Source: Abditibacterium sp. (GTDB lineage: Bacteria > Armatimonadota > Abditibacteriia > Abditibacteriales > Abditibacteriaceae). From it: a DNA stretch of 64,000 bases. Location of the stretch: positions 576,001-640,000 of the forward strand of contig OZ251992.1 of assembly GCA_965246885.1 (NCBI GenBank), written 5' to 3'. Below the pieces are notes generated by a model. That model saw only the letters and a list, made by a program, of their open reading frames with translations. It searched no databases and was not told where the DNA came from. Position 1 is the stretch's first letter; each line of letters begins with the position of its first letter. The position numbers were made by a program, and so were the translations under genes. Of the stretch, positions 11,056 through 63,185 are shown piece after piece.

Positions 11056-11096
11056 GCGAGAAATTTAACAAACAGAGGCGCCATTCTTCCGCTCAC

Positions 11097-11210
11097 CCAT
11101 GCGCGCCACCGAGCCGCCTATGCGCGCCGTTGCGTCGTCTATGCGCGCCGTTGCGTCGTCTATGCGCGCCGTTGCGTCGTCTATGCGCGCCGTTGCGTCG
11201 CCCGCATAGG
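11097..11210. repeat. 21-bp tandem repeat (4 near-perfect copies plus 1 degenerate)
   Basis: CTATGCGCGCCGTTGCGTCGT at 11118, 11139, 11160, 11181; followed by GCATAGG, the reverse complement of the unit start. Confidence 0.9.
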
Positions 11211-11223
11211 TGACTCGCTGCTT

Positions 11224-11739
11224 TTACAACCCGCGCTCCATTTCCAACCGCTCGACCCGGAAACCGGCGCGCTCATATAATCGCACGGCGGAAGCGTTTG
11301 AGCCAGTGACCGTCAAGCGCAAGCGCTCGACCTTGCGCGAGCGGAACCATCCGGCGGCGTGTTCGAGCAATTCCTCGCCCAAATGTTGGCCGCGATGCGT
11401 CGCTTCGATAAAAACGTTATTGACGTAGCCATAGCGCTCGTTCGTCCAGCTATTCGTGCACAGCACCACCCAAATGAACCCGCAGGGGCCAGAAGCGACG
11501 TCATCCAGCACCCACAAAGCATGGTTGCCATCCAAAAAGGCGCGGCGCAGGTCGTGACGAAAAGCGCCGGTGAACTCCAAGGAAATCTTGAATTCGGGAA
11601 AGTTGAGCGCATACGTTTCGCGTTGCCACGAGCAAACGGAATCGGCGTCGGCCTCCCACGCAAAGGAGCGCAGCGCGATGGTTTTTTCCGCTCCCACCAA
11701 GCGCAGCACCGGCGAGGGCCACTCGCGCGGGCGCGGCAA
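11224..11739 (-). CDS. GNAT family N-acetyltransferase (start uncertain)
   Basis: 'YVNNVFIEATHRGQHLGEELL', 'NASAVRLYERAGF'; the upstream part of the track ORF runs through a palindromic repeat. Confidence 0.8.
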   Translation of the reverse strand: MPRPREWPSPVLRLVGAEKTIALRSFAWEADADSVCSWQRETYALNFPEFKISLEFTGAFRHDLRRAFLDGNHALWVLDDVASGPCGFIWVVLCTNSWTNERYGYVNNVFIEATHRGQHLGEELLEHAAGWFRSRKVERLRLTVTGSNASAVRLYERAGFRVERLEMERGL

Positions 11740-11854
11740 AGCGGGAGCCGCTTCGGGGGACGGAGCAGCGCGCTTAACGGCGAAAAACGGGAAGCGCCCG
11801 ATAAGGCTCTTGATGGGGTGAAGTGTAGAGATTTTGAATGGGGTGCTAACTTGT

Positions 11855-12037
11855 ATCAGCCTCTTTGGTTCAGCGACGCCCGGCGACTGAAGTCGCGGGC
11901 AACTTACGGCAAAGCCTCCCTTCGGAGGCTGCGAGCCGGGACAAATGAGTGGCGTTCCTCCAGTCGGCATAGGTGGGCTTTGCCGTAAGTTGCCCGCGAC
12001 TTCAGTCGCTGGGCGTTGCTGAACCAAAGAGGCTGAT
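11855..12037. repeat. REP/REPIN-like inverted repeat, ~62-bp arms, GCGACTGAAGTCGC core
   Basis: 11855-11916 is the reverse complement of 11976-12037 with two differences. Confidence 0.85.
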
Positions 12038-12112
12038 GAAGGGTTCCTATTCCAATTCCAAATTCCGCCTTGCCAAAACCCGCGAAATCCCTCAAACCCA
12101 AAGGCGTTTTTT

Positions 12113-13846
12113 ATGGCTTCTACTTCTGTTATCGCGGCGAAAACAAGCGCGCCGCGCATTGCTTACTATTCGATGGAGATCGGTTTTCGCACCGACATCC
12201 CCACGTATTCGGGCGGTTTGGGCGTTCTGGCGGGCGATACCCTCAAGTCTGCTGCCGATTTGGGCGTGCCGGTTGTGGCGTGCTCGCTGCTTTACAATCG
12301 CGGCTACTTCCGCCAGCATCTCGATCTTGACGGTTGGCAGAGCGAGGAAGACGTGCATTGGGACTTCGCCGCCAAAGGCTTCGTCCTGCAAGACGCGCGT
12401 GTGTCGGTTTCCCTTGAAGGGCGCCGCGTGCAGTTGCAAGCGTGGCGCTACAACTTGAAAGGCGAAACGGGGCACGTCATCCCGCTCATCATGCTCGACG
12501 CCGATGTGGAGGGCAACTCGCCTCAAGACCGCGAACTCACGTTCCGCTTGTATGGTGGCGACAACCGCTACCGCCTCAAGCAGGAAATTATTCTGGGCAT
12601 TGGCGGCACGAGGATGCTCGCCGCGCTCGGTTTCACGCCGCAGAAATACCACATGAACGAGGGACACGCCGCGTTCTTGGTGTTGGAACTGCTGTCGAAG
12701 ACCAAGAAAAACATTGAGGACGTGTGGGACGAAAATCTGGTGTGGGATACGCAATCAGTGAAGGACAGGTGCATCTTTACCACGCACACTCCCGTCGAGG
12801 CGGGGCACGACCGCTTCCATTGGGACTTGGTGAGCGAAGTGATGGGCGACTTCTTTCCGATGCGCGACTTCAAGCGCTTCGGGGATGAACACGACGAACT
12901 CAATATGTCCGTCCTCGCGCTGAATCTGAGCGGCTTCCACAACGCCGTCGCCAAGAAACACGGCGAGGTGTCGCGCAACATGTTTCCGGGCTACGACATT
13001 CGCTCCGTGACCAACGGCGTTCATTCCAAGACGTGGACGCACGAGCTTTGGAAAAGCGTGTTCGACCAATACATCCCCGGCTGGACGCTCGAACCCGAAC
13101 TCTTCGTGCGCGTGGACAACGTGCCGGACGCCGTCGTGTGGGAAACGCACCAAACGTGCAAGCGCGAGTTGCTGGGCATCGTCGAAAGCATGACCGGTAT
13201 TAAAATGTCGGACGACATTTTGACGCTCGGCTTCGCGCGGCGTGCCACGCCTTACAAGCGCGCCGACCTGCTTTTCCGCGATGTGGAGCGCCTGCTTGAG
13301 ATTGCGGGCGGCAAGCTGCAAGTCGTGTATGCCGGAAAAGCCCACCCCAAAGACGGCGCGGGCAAGGACAACATCCACAAAATCATCGAGGCCGCGCGCA
13401 AGTTAGGCGGCGAAATCCCCGTCGTCTTTCTGGAGAACTACGACATGGAACTCGCGCTCAAGATCATCGCGGGCGCGGACGTGTGGCTCAACACCCCGAT
13501 GCGCCCCCGCGAAGCGTCGGGCACCTCCGGCATGAAGGCGACCCACAACGGCGTGCCGAACTTTTCCGTCCTCGACGGGTGGTGGATCGAGGGCTGGATA
13601 GAGGGCGTCACTGGCTGGAGCATCGGCCCCGAAGCAACGGAGACCAACCTCGACGCAGTGGATGAAAACCTCGACCTCGTTGATCTGCTCGACAAGTTGG
13701 AGCACAAACTTCTGCCCACCTACTACGCCGCCGACAACCACGCGGCGTGGATTCAGGTGATGAAGGGGGCGATTGGCAAAAACGCCTGCTACTTCAACAC
13801 CCACCGCATGATGCGCCAATACGTCACGGACGCTTATATCCAGTAA
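12113..13846 (+). CDS. glgP: Alpha-glucan (glycogen/maltodextrin) phosphorylase, GT35
   Basis: 'YSGGLGVLAGD', 'HMNEGH', 'FARRATPYKR', PLP motif 'EASGTSGMK'. Confidence 0.95.
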   Translation: MASTSVIAAKTSAPRIAYYSMEIGFRTDIPTYSGGLGVLAGDTLKSAADLGVPVVACSLLYNRGYFRQHLDLDGWQSEEDVHWDFAAKGFVLQDARVSVSLEGRRVQLQAWRYNLKGETGHVIPLIMLDADVEGNSPQDRELTFRLYGGDNRYRLKQEIILGIGGTRMLAALGFTPQKYHMNEGHAAFLVLELLSKTKKNIEDVWDENLVWDTQSVKDRCIFTTHTPVEAGHDRFHWDLVSEVMGDFFPMRDFKRFGDEHDELNMSVLALNLSGFHNAVAKKHGEVSRNMFPGYDIRSVTNGVHSKTWTHELWKSVFDQYIPGWTLEPELFVRVDNVPDAVVWETHQTCKRELLGIVESMTGIKMSDDILTLGFARRATPYKRADLLFRDVERLLEIAGGKLQVVYAGKAHPKDGAGKDNIHKIIEAARKLGGEIPVVFLENYDMELALKIIAGADVWLNTPMRPREASGTSGMKATHNGVPNFSVLDGWWIEGWIEGVTGWSIGPEATETNLDAVDENLDLVDLLDKLEHKLLPTYYAADNHAAWIQVMKGAIGKNACYFNTHRMMRQYVTDAYIQ

Positions 13847-53935: not shown

Positions 53936-54787
53936 ATGCTCCTTGGCGCCCATCTCCCGACCGGTAAGGGGTTCCCCTTCGCCCTTGCCCATGCGCAGCA
54001 GCTCGGTTTGGGGTGCTTGCAACTGTTCTCGAAGTCCCCAAAACAGTGGAGCGCGGCGGCTTTGGACGAGGGGAAGTGCGCCGACTTCCGCGCGCGTTGG
54101 CGCGAGTCCGGGATGGCGCCGCTTGTGGTGCACGACTCGTTCCTCATCAACCTTGCCGCGCCCGACGAAGCGGTGAGGGAAAAGTCGATCGCCGCGATGG
54201 TGGACGAGATACAGCGCGCCGACGCTCTGGGCGCCGATTGGCTGGTGACGCATTGCGGCGCGCACCTCCAGAAAGACAAGACCGAGGGCGAGCGGGTGGG
54301 TTTGGCGACGCTCGCGGCGAGTTTGTGGCTCTGCTTGGAAGCGACGGCAGGGGCGCGGGTGCGGATTGCCCTCGAAAACACCGCCGCGCAGGGCACCTGC
54401 TTGGGTGGCCCGTTCTGGCATCTGGGGCAGGTATTGGCCGACCTCGATTCGCCGCGCTTGGGGGTATGTTTCGATACCTGCCACGCGTGGGCGGCGGGCT
54501 ACGATGTCGCGGCGGATGTGGCGGGAGTGCTGGCGCAGTTCGACGGCGCGATTGGGTTGGGTAAACTTGGCGTCGTTCACTTGAACGACGCCAAGGGCAC
54601 GCTCGGCGGGCACTTGGACAGGCACGAGCACATCGGCGAAGGTGCCATCGGGCGCGCGGGGATGGCCGCTTTGCTGCATCATCCAGCGTTGCGGGCGTTG
54701 CCATTTGTCCTCGAAACGCCGGAAGTCGAGACGCGCATCGCCGATAACGTCGCGGCGGCGCGCGCCCTTGGCCCGCTCAGCGCGTGA
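53936..54787 (+). CDS. nfo: Endonuclease IV
   Basis: 'LGAH', 'HDSFLINL', 'LENTA', 'CFDTCH', 'HLND', 'DRHEHIGEG', 'LETP'. Confidence 0.95.
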   Translation: MLLGAHLPTGKGFPFALAHAQQLGLGCLQLFSKSPKQWSAAALDEGKCADFRARWRESGMAPLVVHDSFLINLAAPDEAVREKSIAAMVDEIQRADALGADWLVTHCGAHLQKDKTEGERVGLATLAASLWLCLEATAGARVRIALENTAAQGTCLGGPFWHLGQVLADLDSPRLGVCFDTCHAWAAGYDVAADVAGVLAQFDGAIGLGKLGVVHLNDAKGTLGGHLDRHEHIGEGAIGRAGMAALLHHPALRALPFVLETPEVETRIADNVAAARALGPLSA

Positions 54788-55196
54788 ACAGCCACAGCAA
54801 GCCGCCCGCCGCGCCCAGCGCGACCAATGGCACGAGCAGGATGAGCGGGCGATTCTCGCGCTCCCCATACGACGGCGCGACCAGCCAATACCCCAGCGCC
54901 CCGCCCATCACCGCTCCCCACACCGTCCACGCAATCCAAGGCGCAATCGGGAGCGCCGCGCCGCCCGTGATTGTGTCCAAACCCCGCACCAGATAAAACG
55001 CGGGCCAGCGCAGCGCCTGCGACAGCCACACGAGCGCGCTCAGGCCGAAAGTCACCAGCATCAACCCCACGCTGAGCAGCATCTGCGGCGGTAGCTGCGA
55101 CAGCCAACCCATCCCGCGACGGCGGCGCGGCGCTTGGCGTGAACGCTGGTCGGGCGGGGGCGACAAAAACGAAGGCGGGCGGAAAGAAAAGTTCAT
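54777..55196 (-). CDS. Small membrane protein (about 3 TM), last gene of the kinase operon
   Basis: Hydrophobic segments; starts 10 nt after the kinase stop. Confidence 0.7.
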   Translation of the reverse strand: MNFSFRPPSFLSPPPDQRSRQAPRRRRGMGWLSQLPPQMLLSVGLMLVTFGLSALVWLSQALRWPAFYLVRGLDTITGGAALPIAPWIAWTVWGAVMGGALGYWLVAPSYGERENRPLILLVPLVALGAAGGLLWLFTR

Positions 55197-55206
55197 CGGA
55201 AGCACC

Positions 55207-57777
55207 TCACGACTGCGCGTGTTTCTTGAGCGCGTCGAGCCACACGTAGAAGGCTATCACCGCGCCCACGAGCAGAAAGCCGAGCGCGCCGATGTATCCC
55301 ACTGGCGGCTCGACGTCGGAACCATCGGGCGGGTCGGGGTTGATGGTGACGACGCGCACTCCGTCCGCGCGCACAACGGTGCTGGCGCCCCATCCACCTG
55401 CCGGGGGCGGCACGGCGACGGCAGCTTTGACGGCGGCTTCGGGCGACCACTGCGCGCCGGTGCAAGCGAACGCCAGCAATCGTGTGCCGCCCCCGATGGC
55501 CGCGCCCATCAGCATGCCATTGCGCACGAAGGTCTTACGCTTGGTGTCGGGCGGCGCGATGCGGTACGCCAAACCGAGCGGAGCGCGTAGGCAAGCGGTG
55601 CCTCCCTTGGCAAGGGCGAGACTCGCGCGGCCCGCGCTGCCGGGCGCCATGCCGTCGCGCGAGTTGAGCGACACCATCACTTCGCCGCGCCGCGTGTTGA
55701 TTTGAAGCGGCTCGATGCGAAGACCGGGCGGCGCGTTATCGAGCGCCCACGCGCCAAAGGGTAGCCCCGGCCCGACGGCCTCGAACTCCAAGCGCGCGGT
55801 CGCCTTCTCGCCCCACTCGACGGTCATCGGAGTGGGCGCGGCGGTGAAGCGCAGTTCGACGCGCGGCAGTTCGGGGTCGAGCAGGCGCAAGACGGCTTCA
55901 AAGGTCGCTTCGGGCGCGACGGCATCCTTGCGGCGCAGCGCCTCGATTTGCGCGACAAGCGGAGAAACCTCGCCGTTTTCGTCGCGCATCCGTTGGCGCA
56001 GCCACGCGCCCAGCCAGCCGTCGCGCCAGCGCTCCAACCCCGCGCGATACGCCGACGGCACGCCCGCGTCCCAGTCGCGCGCGCTTCCATAGCACGCCCG
56101 CGCGAGGTCGCGCGGTGAACGGGCGACGACGCCGGGCAGGATGGTGTAGGGCCGCGCCGGGTCGAGGAGCCACAGCACCTCCTCCCACGCGATGCGCGCG
56201 TCTATGCTCGACAAGGTGGCGCCCTCGCGCGAGGGCGGCCACCACGCGCCGCGCAAGATGGCCACGCCCGCCGCCAAGTCGGGCCGGTTGGGGCGCCCCA
56301 AGCGCAGCCACGCTTCGAGGGAGTAGAGCGTCTTGCGGGTGATAATCTCGTGAAGGCTGGTCTGCTTGGCCGCCAGCCACGCTTCCACCTGAGCGGGAAA
56401 CGCCTCGATCTCCTCGACCCACAGCCCCGGCCCAAAGGGAAAGGGCAGGTCGGGGTCGAGGCGCAAAATGGCGTGAAAGAGGGCGAGTCGCGGCGCGGTG
56501 CCCCATTGCTCGCGGTCGCGGCGGATGTCGCGCGCGGCCTTGACGTCGAGTTCGCCGATCCAGTTGAGCAGGACGTCCGAGCGCAGCAGTTCCTCTTCGC
56601 CCAGCGTGGGTTCCTCGCCCAGCGCGCGGGCCATGCCCGCCAAGTCGGTGGGCGCGGACGGGAAGACGTTGTAAGGCCGCGCCGCTCGCTTGACGCCTAA
56701 CTCATACCCGGCGTCGTCGCGGATTTTCTGGCGGTCGTGGTCGGTGGTGGTGCCCCCCAGCCAGCGCGCCACTTCGGGGGCGCCCCAGCGCGTGCGGCGG
56801 TTGCGGATGAGCAGACCTTGCATTAACTCCCGCAAGCGCGGCTCGCAGTCGGGCACGGCAACGCGCCCGCCCGCCATGTAGAAGTCGTAGACGTCGCTCC
56901 AACGCCCGGAATGGAGCGCACTCGTGCCGCTTAAAAGCTCGACCAAGACGACGCCAAAGGAGTAGTAGTCGGACGCGGGCGACACGATGGCGGCGGTCTG
57001 GCCGCTTTCGGGGTCAACGAAGCGCGGAAAGGCTTCGGGCGCCATGTAGAAGTGGGTGCCCGCCGCGCGCACGGTGTCGCGCGAGGTGAGGTGCAGTTCA
57101 ACGAGCGAGGAAATGTCGAAGTCGCCGATGGCAAGCGACAAGCGCCCGTTGTGGCGGCGCAAATACAGGTTCTTCGGTTTAATGTCACGGTGAACGACGC
57201 CGCGCTCGTGCAGGTACTGCAAGCCCGCGCAAAAGGGCGCGACGACGCCGCGCTCCAAAACTTGCGCCGCGAGGCGCGCTTGGCCGTCGCGCGGCAGGGC
57301 ATCGTCTAAGGTGCCGCCCTCGCAGAACTCCTGCACTTCGGCCCAGAAGTCTCCCTCGCGCGCGACGCGGTGCGTGGTGAGCAGGGCAGGGTGGCGCAGG
57401 TCAGGCAAGCGGCGCCAGAGTTCCTCGCGCGGCGGATGCAGAGCGGCGGCGATTTTCACCATCACGCGGCCTTGGGGCGCGTCGCAGTCATAAAGTCCGG
57501 CGCGCGTGGTCTCGTGCGGGCGGATGGTCTCGCGGACGATGCAATCGCCACAAATGAGCGCTCCCGGCGCCAAAACGCCCAACGGCAGCAGCCGACCGGC
57601 GCCCGTTTGGACGCGAGCGCGCGGCGCCATGCGGGTGGCATCGGCGGGCGCGAGCGGCGGGGCGGGCGCGGCCTCGACGGGGCGGCGCGGCACGCGGCGC
57701 GTGACGGCCCACAGCAAAGCGCCACGCGGCGCGCGGCGCGTGGTTTGGGCGCGAAAGTCCAGTGGGGAAGCGGCCAT
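55207..57777 (-). CDS. Hanks-type Ser/Thr protein kinase with helical repeats and C-terminal TMs
   Basis: 'VMVK', 'HRDIKPKN', 'GDFDIS', 'GT..YMAPE', 'SDYYSFG'; start could extend to 57957. Confidence 0.88.
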   Translation of the reverse strand: MAASPLDFRAQTTRRAPRGALLWAVTRRVPRRPVEAAPAPPLAPADATRMAPRARVQTGAGRLLPLGVLAPGALICGDCIVRETIRPHETTRAGLYDCDAPQGRVMVKIAAALHPPREELWRRLPDLRHPALLTTHRVAREGDFWAEVQEFCEGGTLDDALPRDGQARLAAQVLERGVVAPFCAGLQYLHERGVVHRDIKPKNLYLRRHNGRLSLAIGDFDISSLVELHLTSRDTVRAAGTHFYMAPEAFPRFVDPESGQTAAIVSPASDYYSFGVVLVELLSGTSALHSGRWSDVYDFYMAGGRVAVPDCEPRLRELMQGLLIRNRRTRWGAPEVARWLGGTTTDHDRQKIRDDAGYELGVKRAARPYNVFPSAPTDLAGMARALGEEPTLGEEELLRSDVLLNWIGELDVKAARDIRRDREQWGTAPRLALFHAILRLDPDLPFPFGPGLWVEEIEAFPAQVEAWLAAKQTSLHEIITRKTLYSLEAWLRLGRPNRPDLAAGVAILRGAWWPPSREGATLSSIDARIAWEEVLWLLDPARPYTILPGVVARSPRDLARACYGSARDWDAGVPSAYRAGLERWRDGWLGAWLRQRMRDENGEVSPLVAQIEALRRKDAVAPEATFEAVLRLLDPELPRVELRFTAAPTPMTVEWGEKATARLEFEAVGPGLPFGAWALDNAPPGLRIEPLQINTRRGEVMVSLNSRDGMAPGSAGRASLALAKGGTACLRAPLGLAYRIAPPDTKRKTFVRNGMLMGAAIGGGTRLLAFACTGAQWSPEAAVKAAVAVPPPAGGWGASTVVRADGVRVVTINPDPPDGSDVEPPVGYIGALGFLLVGAVIAFYVWLDALKKHAQS

Positions 57778-57831
57778 AGCGGATAGTTGCTTTGACAAAG
57801 CGTTAGTTTGAACCGAATCAGCCCTCGGCGT

Positions 57832-57968
57832 CCCGGCCATGAATGACCGGGCTACCCGTTGGCTTTGCCAACCACTGCCCGCCTTCGCGGACAAAACGCA
57901 GTTCGTGTTGGCCACGAAGGTGGCCAGTGGCGCCAAAGGCGCGTGTAGCCCGGCCATTTATGGCCGGG
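57832..57968. repeat. REP doublet GTAGCCCGG-CCAT-t-TATG-GCCGGG
   Basis: 57945-57968 with an inverted partner at 57832-57855; overlaps the FHA gene stop. Confidence 0.75.
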
Positions 57969-58458
57969 CAGAAATTCCCCCTTCAATCGCCACGCGGAAC
58001 GCGGTGAGCGAAAGCGAAAGCAGCGAGCCGTCATGGAGCGCCACTTCCGAGTCGTCTTCGACTGTTTCGCCGTCTACCGCGATGAAGTTGCCCTGCGCGA
58101 TGTATTGCACGAACCACTGCTCGCCGCGCCGCAAGAACTTGGCGTGGCGGCGCGAGATGAAATCCATGTGCGGCACGTCGCAAAGGAGCACGTCGGCTTC
58201 GAGGCCGCGCCCGATGGTTTGCCCCGCTTCCATGACAAAGGAGCGCGTCGGGTCGTCCACCAATTCCAAGCGGCAACGCGCGGGGATCGGAGCAACGGGC
58301 GCGGCGGGCGGGAGCGGGGCCGCGACTTCCACGCTATCGGCGGCGCGCGCCGCGACGGTTTGCGCGGGAACCGACAAGAGGTCGAAGTCGCAGCGCGTGC
58401 AAAAGGATTCGCTCGGCGCGTTTTCGAGGCCGCACGAGGGGCAGATTTTGACTTGCAC
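57958..58458 (-). CDS. Zinc-ribbon plus FHA domain protein
   Basis: 'CPSC...CTRC'; FHA 'IGR...DV...ISRRHA'; GTG 1 nt after the upstream stop. Confidence 0.9.
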   Translation of the reverse strand: MQVKICPSCGLENAPSESFCTRCDFDLLSVPAQTVAARAADSVEVAAPLPPAAPVAPIPARCRLELVDDPTRSFVMEAGQTIGRGLEADVLLCDVPHMDFISRRHAKFLRRGEQWFVQYIAQGNFIAVDGETVEDDSEVALHDGSLLSLSLTAFRVAIEGGISARP

Positions 58459-58459
58459 G

Positions 58460-59152
58460 CTACGCAGTTTCTCCTTCCGGGGCTGTCCGGCGCGCGGGCA
58501 GGTCGGGGCGCGCTTGGATGCCCTGCGCCATCAGCGCCCCGCGATACGCCGCCAAGTCGCCGCGCTTGGGGATCCCAATCAAGCGGAAGCGCGCGGCTCC
58601 CAGCATCTGCAACTGCAACGGGCGGCGCTCCGGCATCGGCGCGGTGGTTTGCTCAAGGTGCCGCGCCGCGCGCGGTGACAAGAGATGCACGCGCTGATTA
58701 TCCGAGCCGCGCCACGCCAACTCGTTGCCCGCGCCCTGCTCGAAGCGGCCATCTATCAGCAAGTCCAACTCGCCCAAATACTCCGCCACTTCCGGCCCGC
58801 GCCCTTGCAACTCCTCCAGCGAAAAGCCGGAATACGACAGCACTTCCAACCCTTCCAAGCCCGCCATCGCCCGCAACGCCCGAATCAGCAGCGTAAGCGG
58901 GCGCGCTTGCAGCGTCGGCTCGCCGCCCGAAATCGAAAGCCCATCCAACCCGCGCAAGGCGGGCGCCAACTGCTGCGCTATCTCGCCCACTGCGCGGTGC
59001 GTCGCGGACGCTCCCGGTTCCCACAGTTCGGGCGTCATGCAACCCGGACACGCGAGCGGGCAGCCGCGCACCCACAAGATCAAGCGGCGCCCCGGCCCCA
59101 GCCCTTCGACGGGCGCGGCGAAGTCTTCCATGTCCAGCAAGGCGTCTTCCAT
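58460..59152 (-). CDS. Radical SAM protein, NrdG/activase-like (4Fe-4S single cluster)
   Basis: 'GPG.R..LWVRGCPLACPGC', 'SISGGEP', 'YSGF', 'DLLIDGRF', 'WRGSDNQR'; TAATG overlap with the ATPase. Confidence 0.9.
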   Translation of the reverse strand: MEDALLDMEDFAAPVEGLGPGRRLILWVRGCPLACPGCMTPELWEPGASATHRAVGEIAQQLAPALRGLDGLSISGGEPTLQARPLTLLIRALRAMAGLEGLEVLSYSGFSLEELQGRGPEVAEYLGELDLLIDGRFEQGAGNELAWRGSDNQRVHLLSPRAARHLEQTTAPMPERRPLQLQMLGAARFRLIGIPKRGDLAAYRGALMAQGIQARPDLPARRTAPEGETA

Positions 59153-61200
59153 TACTTCGCCTCCCAGTGCAGCGTGTAGCCCCAACCCGCGACGGGCGGG
59201 ACTTCGATGTTCGTGACGCGCAGCGTGGTTATCTTGTGCGGCGCGTCGAGAACTTGGAACAGGACGCGTGCGAGCGGGTTGAGGACGGCGGCTTCGGCGA
59301 GGTTGCCCATGCCGCGCCCGCCCGACGCGACGTCACCCCCGCCCAAGCGCATGAGGGTGTCCACCACGCCCTGCTCGAAGACGACTTCGATGCCGTGTGT
59401 TTCGCGCACTTGGGAGGCAATGGAGGGCAGCACTTTGTTTTCGAGGATGCGGCGTAGCGTCGGCTCGCGCACGAAGTCGAAGACAACGACGTTTTGCCCG
59501 ATGCGGTTAAGCAGTTCGGGGCGCCCCAAGATGTGCTTGAAATACGAGCCGACGCCGTCCACGATCTTGGCGCGCACATCGGCATACTCGGTGTCAATGG
59601 CGGGGTCTACGTTGAGTTCGGGCCGCCCCGTGACGGGGTCTACCATAGGCCGCGTGGTTTGCGGGTCGAGGCGGTAGATGCCCGCGTTGGACGTAAAGAC
59701 GATGACGGACTCGGAGAAGTAGACGGTTTGTCCGCGCCCGTCGGTCATGCGGCCATCTTCGAGTATCTGGAGGAACTTATCGAGTATCGAAGGGTGCGCC
59801 TTCTCGATTTCGTCGAAAAGTAAGACGGAGAACGGGTTGGCGCGGACGCGGTTGGTGAGTTGTCCGCCTTCCTCGTAGCCGACGTAGCCGGGCGGGGCGC
59901 CCAATAGCTTTTGGTCGGAGTGCGTGTCGCCGTATTCGCTCATGTCGAAGCGGATGCAGGCGTCTTGGGTTCCAAAGACCAGTTCCGCCATCGCTTTGGC
60001 GAGTTCGGTCTTGCCCACGCCGGTTGGCCCGGCGAAGAACAGGACGCCGCGCGGCTTGGTGCGACTGGAATGTTGCGCGCCCGACAAGCCCAGTCGCGCG
60101 CGGCGCAAAACGTCGGCGACCGCCGCGACCGCCGCTTCTTGGCCGATGACGCGGCGGCTCAAGGCGGCTTCGGCGCCCGCCAACTTCGCGGCGGGCAAGG
60201 TGTCCCATTCGCTTTCGCGCTCGCCGTATTTGAAGCGGTCTACTAATTCCTTGGGCTTGATGGGCGCGTCCTCGCCTTGCGCGTGCGCGGCGCGCGCGAT
60301 TTTGCGGATGCCATACAGGTCGCGCACGCTCATGCCGTCGGTCAGTTCGACCAACTCATCGAGGGGTGTCTTGTGGCTGGCCTCGGAGCGTTGGCGGGCG
60401 ACGGCGGGCAGGAAGCGGGTGAAGAAGTGGCGCCGCTCGACCGAGCGTGGCAATTCCACCTCGACGCCCGCGCCAAAGGGGTTGTTGAGATACACCCACG
60501 CCGGCAGGTCGGTCAGCTTGTCGCAACCCACGACCAGCAGGTTCTGCACTTCGCGCGGCGCCTCGTCGCCCGCGCCGCGCGCCGACAGGACACGGTTTTC
60601 CGGCGCCGAGCGCACCAGCCGCAAGAACGAACTCCGCTCGGCGAGCGTCAGGTGCGTCGGCGACGCGAGCAGTTGCGAGGCGTATTCCAGAAAGAACACC
60701 GTTGGCACCCGCGCGTTGAGCAGACAAATCCGCATTTGCTGGAGCGCCAAGTCGAGAGGGTCTTCGGGGTTGCTCGGCCCCGGATGGCGCCCCGCGCCAA
60801 GCGAAAAGCGCGCCGTCCGTTCGCCCGCTTCGACGAACTGCTCGAACAGTTGCGCCATCGTGAGCGCGGCGCCGGGAACTTTAACCGGCAAGACCGGCGC
60901 TTTGACGTCAGTGAGCGGAAGCGGCACGCCCGCGAGTGGCGCGTCGGCGAACACCATCCCGTCAATGGAGTTGAACGCGCCAATCAGCCCATAGCCGCGC
61001 GTTCGGAAAAACTCGAACAGCGCCTCGCGCAGCGACCCCAACTTCCAAGCGCCGTCCCCTTCGGGCACGCCGGGCGAGGGCGCGAGCGGATACAGCACGG
61101 TGTCCTTGATTTGCCCGTAGAGATAGATTTGCGACTTGAACGCGCTCAGGCGGTCGAGGTCGCGCATCCAACGCGGCAGCAGATTCGGGGTTTGCGACAT
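59152..61200 (-). CDS. ClpB-like AAA+ ATPase: intact D2 module, degenerate N-terminal module
   Basis: 'VIGQ..AV', 'GPTGVGKT', 'RFDMSEY', 'GAPPGYVGY', 'LFDEIEKAH', 'TSN', 'RPELLNRI'; no Walker A in the first half. Confidence 0.9.
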   Translation of the reverse strand: MSQTPNLLPRWMRDLDRLSAFKSQIYLYGQIKDTVLYPLAPSPGVPEGDGAWKLGSLREALFEFFRTRGYGLIGAFNSIDGMVFADAPLAGVPLPLTDVKAPVLPVKVPGAALTMAQLFEQFVEAGERTARFSLGAGRHPGPSNPEDPLDLALQQMRICLLNARVPTVFFLEYASQLLASPTHLTLAERSSFLRLVRSAPENRVLSARGAGDEAPREVQNLLVVGCDKLTDLPAWVYLNNPFGAGVEVELPRSVERRHFFTRFLPAVARQRSEASHKTPLDELVELTDGMSVRDLYGIRKIARAAHAQGEDAPIKPKELVDRFKYGERESEWDTLPAAKLAGAEAALSRRVIGQEAAVAAVADVLRRARLGLSGAQHSSRTKPRGVLFFAGPTGVGKTELAKAMAELVFGTQDACIRFDMSEYGDTHSDQKLLGAPPGYVGYEEGGQLTNRVRANPFSVLLFDEIEKAHPSILDKFLQILEDGRMTDGRGQTVYFSESVIVFTSNAGIYRLDPQTTRPMVDPVTGRPELNVDPAIDTEYADVRAKIVDGVGSYFKHILGRPELLNRIGQNVVVFDFVREPTLRRILENKVLPSIASQVRETHGIEVVFEQGVVDTLMRLGGGDVASGGRGMGNLAEAAVLNPLARVLFQVLDAPHKITTLRVTNIEVPPVAGWGYTLHWEAK

Positions 61201-61242
61201 GGGTAGTGGGTTGTTGGGGTTGGGAAGCGTTGAAAAAGAGTT

Positions 61243-62574
61243 TTATTCCCCCATTCGCCGCACTTGGGGCGCCCCGCTTTCGCGGCGGGCGGCTTCGGCA
61301 ATGGCTTGGGAGGCCCCGTCGCTTTGCAGTTGCACGACTTGCAACTCTTCCTTGCCCGCTTTGAAGTTGCGGCGCTTCTTTTCGCGCACAACCAAGTTGC
61401 GGCGGCGCAGGCCGTCGAAGACGGCGTCCATCAGGTCGCACACCCGCTCTTGTTCGCGGCTCGATACCTCGCGCGTGCCGTCCGACAGGGCGACCATCTT
61501 GCCTTCGAGCGCGCCTTTGCCGTCTATGTGCAGTTGCACGCCCGTTCCGGCGTCGAGAACCGCGACAAGTTCGGGCGAGTTGGTGGCGCTCGACACGCGG
61601 TAGCCAAGCCCCGCCAGCACTTGCTGCACTTGGTCTTCGAGAAAGGTCTGCATGGCGCGCTCGTCGAGGGCTTCCTGCGTGCGGGCGAACAGGGCGTCGC
61701 TTTGCTCGGCCAGCCCTTCGAGGGTTTGCAGTTCGACGGGCGTCGCGGCGACAAGGGCGGACAGGCGTTTGAGCATCTCGTTCGCTTCGCGGCGCGGCTC
61801 CTCAAGGACGGTTTGGTTGAGGACGGCGCGCGCGTTGGCCGAAATGTGACCGGCCAACTCGCGGGCGCGGGCGGCGTTTTGCAAGCGCGCGGCGTCTTCT
61901 CCGGTGGCGCGTTTGATTTCACTCCGCGCCCGCTCCCCAAGCAGTTGCAGCCCTTGCACCGCCATCGCGGGCTGAGTCGCCGCCAGTTCGCGCACTTGCG
62001 CGGCGCGCTCCAAAATGGCTTTGAGTGCTGCGCCCCGTCCGCCGCGCGCCAAGGGAGACGCGCGCACATCCGCTTCAAGCGCGGCGACTTCCTCGCGCAC
62101 GAGTGCCGCGACATCGGCGCTCTTGGCGGAGGTCTCTTTCGCGCGTGCCGCCACCCATGCCGCGACCGCCGCCTGCAATTGCTCGAAGGCCGCCATCTGT
62201 CCGCCCGCGCCGGACGCCGCTACCTCGCGGATGACCTCCGCGCATCGGGCGCGCAGAGCCGCCACTTGGGGAGAAGTCGGCGCGTTCGGGTCGCCGCCCG
62301 CCGCGCCCAAGCGCCCGCGCATCCGGCTCAGGGCGCCCAGCAGAAACGCTGTGTCGGGGTCGGCGGCGCTTTGGGGAGATAGCTCCAGCGCCATGCTTTG
62401 CGCCAAGCGCCGCGACTCGGCGAACTGCGCGCGCTGTTGCGAGTGTTCTTGTGCTTCGCGCTCGTCGCGCGCGGCCCACTCCGCTTTGGCCGCGCAATAA
62501 TCGCCGCGCATCTGGCGCGCGGCCAAATACACCGCCGCTCCCGCCACCACCACGCCCCCCGTCGCCGCCATCAT
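61243..62574 (-). CDS. Coiled-coil protein with N-terminal hydrophobic helix, first gene of the operon (true start probably 62645 across a frameshift)
   Basis: Long Ala/Glu/Arg-rich helices; C-terminal alpha/beta domain 'VLAGLGYRV...LHIDGKG...ERVC'. Confidence 0.75.
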   Translation of the reverse strand: MMAATGGVVVAGAAVYLAARQMRGDYCAAKAEWAARDEREAQEHSQQRAQFAESRRLAQSMALELSPQSAADPDTAFLLGALSRMRGRLGAAGGDPNAPTSPQVAALRARCAEVIREVAASGAGGQMAAFEQLQAAVAAWVAARAKETSAKSADVAALVREEVAALEADVRASPLARGGRGAALKAILERAAQVRELAATQPAMAVQGLQLLGERARSEIKRATGEDAARLQNAARARELAGHISANARAVLNQTVLEEPRREANEMLKRLSALVAATPVELQTLEGLAEQSDALFARTQEALDERAMQTFLEDQVQQVLAGLGYRVSSATNSPELVAVLDAGTGVQLHIDGKGALEGKMVALSDGTREVSSREQERVCDLMDAVFDGLRRRNLVVREKKRRNFKAGKEELQVVQLQSDGASQAIAEAARRESGAPQVRRMGE

Positions 62575-62729
62575 GGTGGCAAAGGCGCCCGCGCCCCCGC
62601 CCGCTCCGCGTTCATTATCACGACCGCATCGGTTGCTCCGCTCATAGTTCCTCCCGGCGAAAATGCCGCTTCAAGTAAAGCACGTTGCGCGCCGCCGCTA
62701 AAGGGAGCGATAAGCAAAAAGCCTTGCAA

Positions 62730-63095
62730 TCACGCCGCGTGCGCTCGCAGTTGGGCCAAGTCCACCCACTCCAAAGCGGAAATGTGGGTGGCATGAAGGT
62801 CAACGGGCGGGGCGACGCCTGCGTCGAACGCTTCTTTCCAGCGCCCAACGCACAAGCACCACCGGTCGCCCGCGCGAAGGCCGGGGAAACCGAAACGCGG
62901 GACGGCAGTAACGAGGTCGTTGCCGCGTGCGCGGGAGAAGGCGAGGAACTCGTCGGTCATGACGGCGCACACGAGGTGCAGGCCGGAGTCGTTCTCGCCG
63001 GTGTTGCAGCAGCCGTCGCGGAAAAAGCCGGTGAGCGGGTCGCGGCCACACTCTTGGAGCGGCTCGCCTAAGACGTTGTGGGCCGTAGAAGTCAT
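62730..63095 (-). CDS. DUF2237 family protein
   Basis: 'NVLGEPL..C..DPLTGFFRDGCC.T...D.G.H.VCA...GNDL.T..P..GFPGL..GDRWCLC..RW'. Confidence 0.92.
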   Translation of the reverse strand: MTSTAHNVLGEPLQECGRDPLTGFFRDGCCNTGENDSGLHLVCAVMTDEFLAFSRARGNDLVTAVPRFGFPGLRAGDRWCLCVGRWKEAFDAGVAPPVDLHATHISALEWVDLAQLRAHAA

Positions 63096-63185
63096 TGCTG
63101 GGGCGTGGTTCCATTTGCGCGCCAAAATTCCGGTGAACTTCCGCGCCACAAGCGCGTCCAAGGGTGCAAGTTCAAGAGGATTCCC

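Follow-up and report, generated by a model that had tools for sequence, protein, structure and literature searches.

Which of six neighbouring genes in an Abditibacterium genome form a unit, and what would be the use of a unit that combines a Clp-type ATPase ring, an orphan radical S-adenosylmethionine (SAM) enzyme and a Ser/Thr phosphorylation switch? The genes lie on the minus strand at 54777..62645 of the window, i.e. the 64,000 nucleotides (nt) of Abditibacterium sp. (GCA_965246885.1, contig OZ251992.1, positions 576,001-640,000, forward strand) whose open reading frames (ORFs) were read. A preliminary description had taken all six as one phosphorylation-gated machine that remodels and radically modifies a dedicated substrate. 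Comparison of relatives points instead to a constant core of coiled-coil protein, ATPase and radical SAM enzyme, with kinase, FHA protein and PP2C apparently forming one exchangeable module. We propose, with the chances evenly balanced in our view, that this three-protein core underlies a conflict (anti-invader) system that is controlled by a switch and works through the coiled-coil protein. The six genes are:

61243..62645, minus strand: gene 1, a long helical (coiled-coil/bundle) protein of 467 amino acids (aa), from a structure model, fold comparison and profiles
59152..61200, minus strand: gene 2, a tandem AAA+ ATPase of 682 aa, from Pfam/NCBIfam and motif alignment
58460..59152, minus strand: gene 3, a short radical SAM enzyme (Fer4_12) of 230 aa, from Pfam/NCBIfam, motifs and a model
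57958..58458, minus strand: gene 4, a zinc ribbon plus FHA protein of 166 aa, from Pfam and motif alignment
55207..57777, minus strand: gene 5, a Hanks-type Ser/Thr kinase of 856 aa, from Pfam, the orthologue start and motifs
54777..55196, minus strand: gene 6, a 139-aa membrane protein, from a homologous domain fused to kinases

The coordinates and tight junctions of this co-oriented run, set between nfo and a DUF2237 gene, proved to be as first described: TAATG at 59152 joins the ATPase stop to the radical SAM start, 1 nt (58459) separates the radical SAM and FHA genes, 10 nt (55197-55206) separate the kinase from gene 6, and 42 nt separate genes 1 and 2. All six genes are real; in two details the described extent did not stand, since the ATG at 62645 is out of frame in the window and the apparent abutment of kinase and FHA gene is false (see below for both). 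Pfam and NCBIfam recognize AAA_2 (residues 383-567), Fer4_12/Radical_SAM, zinc ribbon plus FHA, and Pkinase domains, and match no family in genes 1 and 6. A close ATPase orthologue is present in 4 of 12 same-genus genomes; three of these loci hold all six genes in order, and the fourth holds genes 2-6 up to the contig end. Because they keep the gene order, the cassette is not a chance assembly. Its closest named relatives are Abditibacterium/Abditibacteriales genomes, and a promoter and terminator scan gave no signal exceeding chance. One same-genus cassette carries inserted, unrelated genes for a 303-aa orphan and a Gfo/Idh/MocA oxidoreductase (L014:8019-8930 and 11085-12443).

To what extent the genes travel together was read from a contig scan with the catalytically dead first domain of gene 2, in which 219 pattern matches yielded 194 relatives; the counts below refer to the best 80. 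The coiled-coil gene occurs in 38 of these loci and the radical SAM gene in 35, with both in 34, the exception being ended by the end of its contig. Another 39 loci, mostly of rumen Clostridia, hold the ATPase with a 226-aa partner and neither coiled-coil nor radical SAM gene, and 2 were too short to classify. Within 8 kb of the 35 radical SAM loci we find FHA (33), kinase (31), PP2C (23) and gene 6 (18). Co-occurrence across phyla, as the preliminary description had supposed, is borne out: 30 loci combine the coiled-coil, ATPase and radical SAM genes with FHA and kinase genes, in several gene orders, in Abditibacteriota/Armatimonadota, Bacillota, Bacteroidota, Spirochaetota and Binatota. These 30 include near-duplicates and in part coincide with the same-genus loci. 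The five-gene set recurs in five to six phyla; gene 6 is present in 17 of the 30. In the two-gene Clostridia form (L046, L048, L049, L052, L054-L063 and others) the ATPase keeps all D2 motifs and there is no kinase gene; the 226-aa partner has no Pfam match and is a relative of the C-terminal region of the DUF4236 protein that L092/L093 encode.

Exchange of partners is most evident on plasmids. The ATPase is found in 19 plasmid records, of which 5 were examined. Polaromonas, Moellerella and Acinetobacter plasmids encode an SF1 helicase, a PIN protein and the three core proteins, with no kinase or FHA gene; a Rhizobium plasmid joins the core to a broken kinase-DUF4011-helicase-restriction endonuclease gene, and a Geminocystis plasmid joins it to double-GTPases. 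As these versions swap partners, the system is best described as a three-gene core with the phospho-switch as one of several attachments. The six-gene set therefore does not hold as a unit, nor does the phosphorylation-gated machine as first written, because the gating module is exchangeable and absent from the helicase-PIN versions. The five-gene version in cultured Proteobacteria (L210:1563-11474, L211:1502-11455, L214:1359-11078; its SF1 helicase gives MkoA-like matches) is a ready candidate defence system. Directly behind one copy lie a VakA-like nucleotide kinase and a viperin-like radical SAM gene (L214:11349-13331).

In the phylum of the window, the radical SAM profile finds matches in 34 of 201 genomes. 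Twenty further loci examined there include the Clp-type core, the core with double-GTPases and the core beside a SpoVK/CbbX-like tandem ATPase, in some cases also with Hsp70, as well as solo genes, true NrdG and true PflA. Core versions of Abditibacteriaceae (L160:9593-18308, L163:9929-17761, L017, L018) lie directly behind a type IV secretion system (T4SS) coupling protein and come with a tandem SpoVK/CbbX-like ATPase, Hsp70, double-GTPase or vWA-FHA-PP2C-kinase; a Replic_Relax-like gene is also present in 3 of the 4, and the core versions are integrative-element cargo. In Clostridia, genes for FtsK/EssC-like and small helical membrane proteins stand directly upstream of radical SAM (L064:265-6228, L066:1-5971, L088:3-5812). 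Among viral contigs, 54 pattern matches gave 0 confirmed relatives, and phage records gave no match.

The ATPase itself combines a dead and an intact domain. In its N-terminal domain G-x-x-x-D replaces Walker A, so that the lysine is missing. By contrast, the C-terminal Clp D2 ring keeps the Walker A Lys, Walker B DE, arginine finger and sensor 2 in 35/35 full-type relatives, and its GYVGY pore loop retains the pore Tyr in 34/35. The D2 ring, pore loop and catalytic motifs are those of Hsp100/Clp proteins (ClpA, ClpB, ClpC, ClpV); gene 2 differs from them in having no Clp N-domain (neither Clp_N nor AAA_lid_9 is matched), in carrying an unrelated-looking dead AAA domain in place of D1, and in scoring far below the Hsp100/Clp family cut-offs. 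The dead domain is AAA-like, with weak matches to Vps4/paraplegin lids (E 0.018-0.1), and is represented by 730 sequences at 50% identity (E<=0.001). It has no profile match to Clp D1 (probability 0.2) or, with shallow profiles, to the Ycf46 N-terminal domain. It does align over 199 columns (probability 68%) with the N-terminus of the different tandem ATPase of L160/L163, which has the same partner genes as the core.

The radical SAM enzyme is equally well preserved, with CxxxCxxC in 35/35 full-type relatives, and the catalytic motifs as a whole are intact across this set. The model of gene 3 (predicted local distance difference test, pLDDT, 92.5) has the PFL-activating enzyme as top fold match (Z 10.6, root-mean-square deviation (rmsd) 3.1, 142 aligned), with QueE (Z 9.2-8.4) and viperin (Z 6.6) as subsequent neighbours. 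It shares CxxxCxxC, GGEP and a short partial barrel with NrdG/PflA, and differs from them in falling below the family cut-offs (TIGR02491, 91.7 of 126.1 bits; TIGR02493, 40.2 of 231.75 bits), in carrying ~60 additional C-terminal residues compared with NrdG encoded beside NrdD, and in having no glycyl-radical enzyme in its operon or genome. Specifically, PF01228 (Gly_radical) and PF13597 (NRDD) find no match in the 92.7% complete genome; in controls they match in 3/14 and 6/14 genomes, respectively. The enzyme is therefore an orphan, as first described, and we ruled out that it is a misplaced NrdG. None of the six proteins has an RVxGY-type motif. In a tree of 52 rows (omitting the near-duplicates L024, L037, L087 and L093 and the cut L041), PflA is separate and NrdG falls within an unresolved fork together with the cassette family, so the tree gives no separate clade for the latter.

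What could such an enzyme act on? The first gene product had been named as the most plausible substrate, and it is indeed the best candidate, because 34 of the 35 loci with the radical SAM gene also have gene 1, and the 39 two-gene loci have neither; the assignment is inferred from this co-occurrence. Gene 1 is whole. In the window sequence its ATG at 62645 and the long ORF are in different frames, and the contigs of both public runs that hold the locus have one extra base behind 62607 and no other listed difference (the 2 runs come from 1 study, and one of them may be the source sample). Same-genus orthologues begin at the codon equivalent to this ATG, and the one-base deletion near 62607 is thus an assembly error. 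The extra base in both runs' contigs also rules out a pseudogene. Further apparent frameshifts of the Abditibacterium genome may likewise be assembly errors.

The gene 1 model (pLDDT 85.8) consists of helical bundles and a C-terminal alpha/beta domain, and the protein starts with a hydrophobic stretch that is not common to all homologues. The C-terminal domain resembles KA1-fold domains with middling scores, i.e. Chk1 (Z 8.4, rmsd 2.6, 78 aligned), METTL16 (7.8) and AMPK (7.8); KA1 domains bind acidic lipids. It carries an LGY motif and an invariant Cys (42/42), with Gly-aromatic in 38/42. Foldseek with the whole model gave no match at E<=0.001, and a comparison with the Atlas returned unnamed clusters only (0.89-0.92, low recognition) and no match for the C-terminal domain. 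There is no Pfam PspA/Snf7 match, and the fold matches listed are generic helical bundles with no PspA/ESCRT-III chain among them.

Profile comparison relates this C-terminal domain to two families of the Ycf46 module. It aligns with DUF1257 over 91 columns (probability 74%, score 33.6) and with DUF2997 over 38 columns, with the Cys aligned (probability 43%, score 25.5), using 42 rows for the gene 1 domain, 38 for DUF1257 and 30 for DUF2997. Reversed plus 30 block-shuffled templates reached at most 18.6 (DUF1257) and 16.8 (DUF2997), and six unrelated profiles at most 21.4. Earlier comparisons with shallow alignments had been weak (probability 25 and 18) and were repeated deeper with these controls; Pfam alone finds neither DUF1257 nor DUF2997 in 31 gene 1 family members. 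Remote common descent of the gene 1 domain and DUF1257 (Ycf35) is probable, not proven. In L124/L125 the same radical SAM family adjoins a Ycf46-like ATPase, DUF1257 and DUF2997. Other loci show related arrangements: a short radical SAM gene converging on ClpC-like, FHA, DUF1257 and DUF2997 genes (L169:9670-13749); kinase, PP2C, ClpC-like ATPase, FHA, DUF1257 and DUF2997 genes together (L123:3568-9087); and DUF2997 adjoining zinc-ribbon membrane, TPR and PilT-like genes, the last named by eye (L108, L109, L112, L114, L115).

The attached FHA and kinase domains are also intact. The FHA protein keeps its zinc ligands and the phosphothreonine-binding GR, SxxH and N residues, and the kinase, which keeps its kinase motifs, has an N-terminal tail with Thr repeats, a helical and beta-rich middle and C-terminal membrane segment(s). 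The motif T-x-[RK]-[ILVM], a site type recognized by FHA domains, is counted 40 times in 2015 kinase-tail residues compared with 33 times in 24048 elsewhere; it is found in 18 of 32 kinases with a delimitable tail. In relatives, kinase extensions include SH3 and FGE-sulfatase-like domains, and in L035-L037 the gene 6 domain is fused to the kinase C-terminus; gene 6 is a membrane piece split off from the kinase. Between kinase and FHA gene lies a further feature:

57832..57968, no strand assigned: a 137-nt palindromic repeat, overlapping the FHA stop codon (hairpin z -9.2)

We take this repeat to be REP-like. It occupies the site where 3 of the 4 same-genus orthologous loci carry a PP2C gene, and 5 more copies are present in the genome (G000:C1 495728, 567213, 1407369, 1500010, 2459142). 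The copy at 567213 directly precedes a 142-aa ORF that, judged from its motifs, presumably encodes an IS200/Y1 (RAYT-like) transposase. The kinase ORF can be extended upstream, where its first 60 codons are mostly the repeat, and an orthologue aligns from its own residue 1 at window position 57777. Given this start and the repeat origin of the first 60 codons, we place the kinase start at 57777, leaving a 180-nt gap to the FHA gene; a 916-aa kinase is ruled out on the same grounds. A PP2C orthologue is found neither in the window nor in the genome, which has only 27-31% paralogues, and a PP2C remnant sought in the window was rejected.

Two neighbouring genes lie outside the system:

53936..54787, plus strand: nfo (endonuclease IV; TIGR00587 above cut-off), convergent, with an 11-nt overlap with gene 6
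62730..63098, minus strand: a DUF2237 gene, from a Pfam match

The interval between nfo and DUF2237 holds other genes in 3 relatives, and the tetranucleotide distance of the cassette ranks 209 of 218 genome windows. Because of this variable interval and atypical composition, and because only 4 of 12 same-genus genomes have it, the cassette is accessory. In some loci the core adjoins T4SS coupling protein/relaxase genes, in others SIR2, TIR-STAND, CHAT or Hhe-like genes; these neighbours, the patchy presence and the variable interval speak for a conflict role.

From the genes, their intact motifs, their co-occurrence and the exchange of modules we infer a sequence of events as follows. The ATPase would assemble into a ring; its dead first domain would dock partners, while the Clp D2 ring would thread the coiled-coil protein. 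The radical SAM enzyme, with its peptide-acting-activase shape, would act on the KA1/DUF1257-like domain (Gly-Tyr, Cys) of that protein and thereby arm or lock it. In the Abditibacterium genome the trigger would be a cue at the membrane kinase and its split-off partner, gene 6; the kinase would autophosphorylate the Thr repeats in its tail, which would then be bound by the zinc-ribbon-FHA protein, so that the core is recruited or released, and PP2C, where present, would reset the switch. Since this version has no nuclease, the coiled-coil protein itself would most likely be the output, assembling at the membrane or being released there to bring about growth arrest or containment; other versions seem to link the same core to helicase-PIN or helicase-nuclease effectors.

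Several observations weigh against the proposed conflict function. The conserved Gly of the coiled-coil protein is not invariant (38/42), the Abditibacterium version has no recognizable effector domain, and the SH3 and FGE-sulfatase-like kinase extensions are just as compatible with envelope signalling. Ala/Arg-rich proteins may account for the odd composition. Members of the closest clade (L019-L038) are often amid housekeeping genes, and the locus itself lies between nfo and DUF2237. The preliminary description had suggested looking for enrichment near defence islands, and none was demonstrable for the cassette's clade: 19 of 230 flanking ORFs from 32 loci other than the window's match PADLOC at E<=1e-8, mostly through generic domains (2 ORFs >1500 aa were dropped, one of them scanned separately). 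A credible defence neighbour is present in only ~6-7 of the 32 loci, a figure without matched control, i.e. SIR2 (L039), TIR-STAND (L045), DrmD-like (L032), TPR-CHAT (L042), SNF2 (L066), Hhe-like (L092) and HigA-like (L019).

The housekeeping neighbours would suit a remodelling machine for envelope or redox stress, of the same kind as Ycf46/Ycf35/DUF2997, with no anti-invader role in the Abditibacterium version, an explanation we regard as possible yet rather doubtful. The coiled-coil protein would then polymerize on membranes and be recycled by the ATPase, in the manner of ESCRT-III or PspA with an AAA motor, the kinase would sense the cell-wall state, and the Fe-S enzyme would be a redox switch. 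The KA1-like fold and hydrophobic N-terminus of gene 1 agree with this, although some coiled-coil homologues have no such N-terminus. So do the DUF1257 and DUF2997 matches above shuffled controls and the loci where the radical SAM family adjoins a Ycf46-like/ClpC-like ATPase, DUF1257 and DUF2997 (L124, L125, L169), whereas the dead domain is without a match to the Ycf46 N-terminal domain, the profiles being shallow. It also agrees with this that archaeal ESCRT loci hold kinases, phosphatases and FHA proteins (PMC10936438). Patchy presence and a variable insertion site argue against a stress machine, and the plasmid helicase-PIN and helicase-nuclease partners do not fit membrane upkeep.

The plasmid helicase-PIN versions, having no kinase or membrane parts, also speak against an assembly or maturation line for a cell-contact or secretion structure, in which the coiled-coil protein would be secreted or displayed as a subunit, with the radical SAM enzyme modifying it and the ATPase unfolding it. 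Its appeal is that the same four activities make up the threonine-phosphorylation switch of the type VI secretion system (T6SS), with its PpkA/PppA/Fha/ClpV logic, that FtsK/EssC-like genes adjoin the loci L064, L066 and L088, and that the kinase extensions face the periplasm. Yet 125 Pfam-scanned flanking proteins include no channel genes except the FtsK-like genes and a flagellar neighbourhood, judged by eye, and we think this explanation quite unlikely. Slightly less probable still is that the radical SAM enzyme has, QueE- or viperin-like, a small-molecule or nucleotide substrate, with the other proteins serving only as its regulators. QueE and viperin do follow the PFL-activase among the fold neighbours, and one plasmid homologue has a weak pVip match (E 7e-6), but a protein-acting activase family is the best fold and sequence match, the enzyme is strictly coupled to one large protein, and the core has no nucleotide kinase or pathway gene.

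The switch-controlled conflict system could be part of something wider. Conceivably, though we think it unlikely, the triad serves bacterial immunity as a common hub for activation. It would then apply protein-radical chemistry to a KA1-like domain with conserved Gly and Cys, connect to kinase, GTPase, Hsp70 or helicase-nuclease modules, and have its ancestry and mechanism in common with the Ycf46/Ycf35/DUF2997 genes that cyanobacteria and plastids retain. We found no characterized signalling or defence pathway in which an unfoldase is coupled with a protein-acting radical SAM enzyme. A role for the core would also be one for the many '4Fe-4S single cluster domain' genes that are orphans, and the system can be tested now because the family is large, occurs in several phyla and is present on plasmids of cultured bacteria.

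How does it compare with known systems? The literature searched, mostly without subscription papers, holds no description of the gene set, and the defence models compared agree with the preliminary description that no described system matches; as far as searched, the system is undescribed and a member of no family tested. T6SS core genes are absent beside the locus and from the set of 125 scanned flanking proteins, a search that did not extend to the whole genome. The simple subtype of the FtsH-type vWA-MoxR ternary system, for which a conflict role is proposed (Kaur et al. 2020, PMC7159879), likewise combines alpha-helical proteins and a tandem AAA+ protein whose N-terminal domain is inactive with a radical SAM enzyme for which modification of a partner is proposed. 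It differs in its FtsH-type active ring, in place of which we find a Clp D2 ring with a kinase/FHA module, and in its partner, a peptide there and a 350-590 aa protein here; none of the six genes encodes MoxR or vWA, although vWA occurs without MoxR in L073 and L157. The GTPase-centric systems in the same work (PMC7159879) are, like Dodola and TerY-P below, a precedent for the conflict reading, and a PspA-linked tandem AAA protein with an inactive N-terminal copy is also reported (PMC11237479).

Dodola, i.e. DolA and the ClpB-domain ATPase DolB, has reported anti-phage activity (PMC11514479) and shares a ClpB-D2-type ATPase outside normal Hsp100; the DolB model matches gene 2 residues 326-505 (E 2.6e-17). 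By contrast, DolA (DUF6414) is unmatched by all six proteins at E<=0.01, and Dodola as described there has no radical SAM, coiled-coil, FHA or kinase gene. In the TerY-P triad of vWA, PP2C and Ser/Thr kinase, the phospho-switch is an optional add-on to larger conflict systems (PMC10542128). L073 resembles it in having, next to the core, vWA, FHA and PP2C genes and a kinase that carries S1/OB domains; the window locus lacks vWA and PP2C, and its FHA protein and three-gene core stand outside TerY-P as described.

The Ycf46/Ycf35/DUF2997 module of cyanobacteria, plastids and other bacteria has an active domain of the classical AAA type, while the motor here is a Clp D2 ring behind a different dead domain. 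The putative DUF1257-like domain is here fused to long helical bundles, with homology that is remote and below Pfam detection. The module shares with our system an AAA motor and, in some of its loci, the same short radical SAM family, and probably also a DUF1257-like domain and a Cys-bearing DUF2997-like motif. The KA1/DUF1257-like ending of gene 1 thus probably ties the system to the unexplained Ycf46 module, a new finding that gives a handle on the long-unexplained Ycf35/Ycf46 genes.

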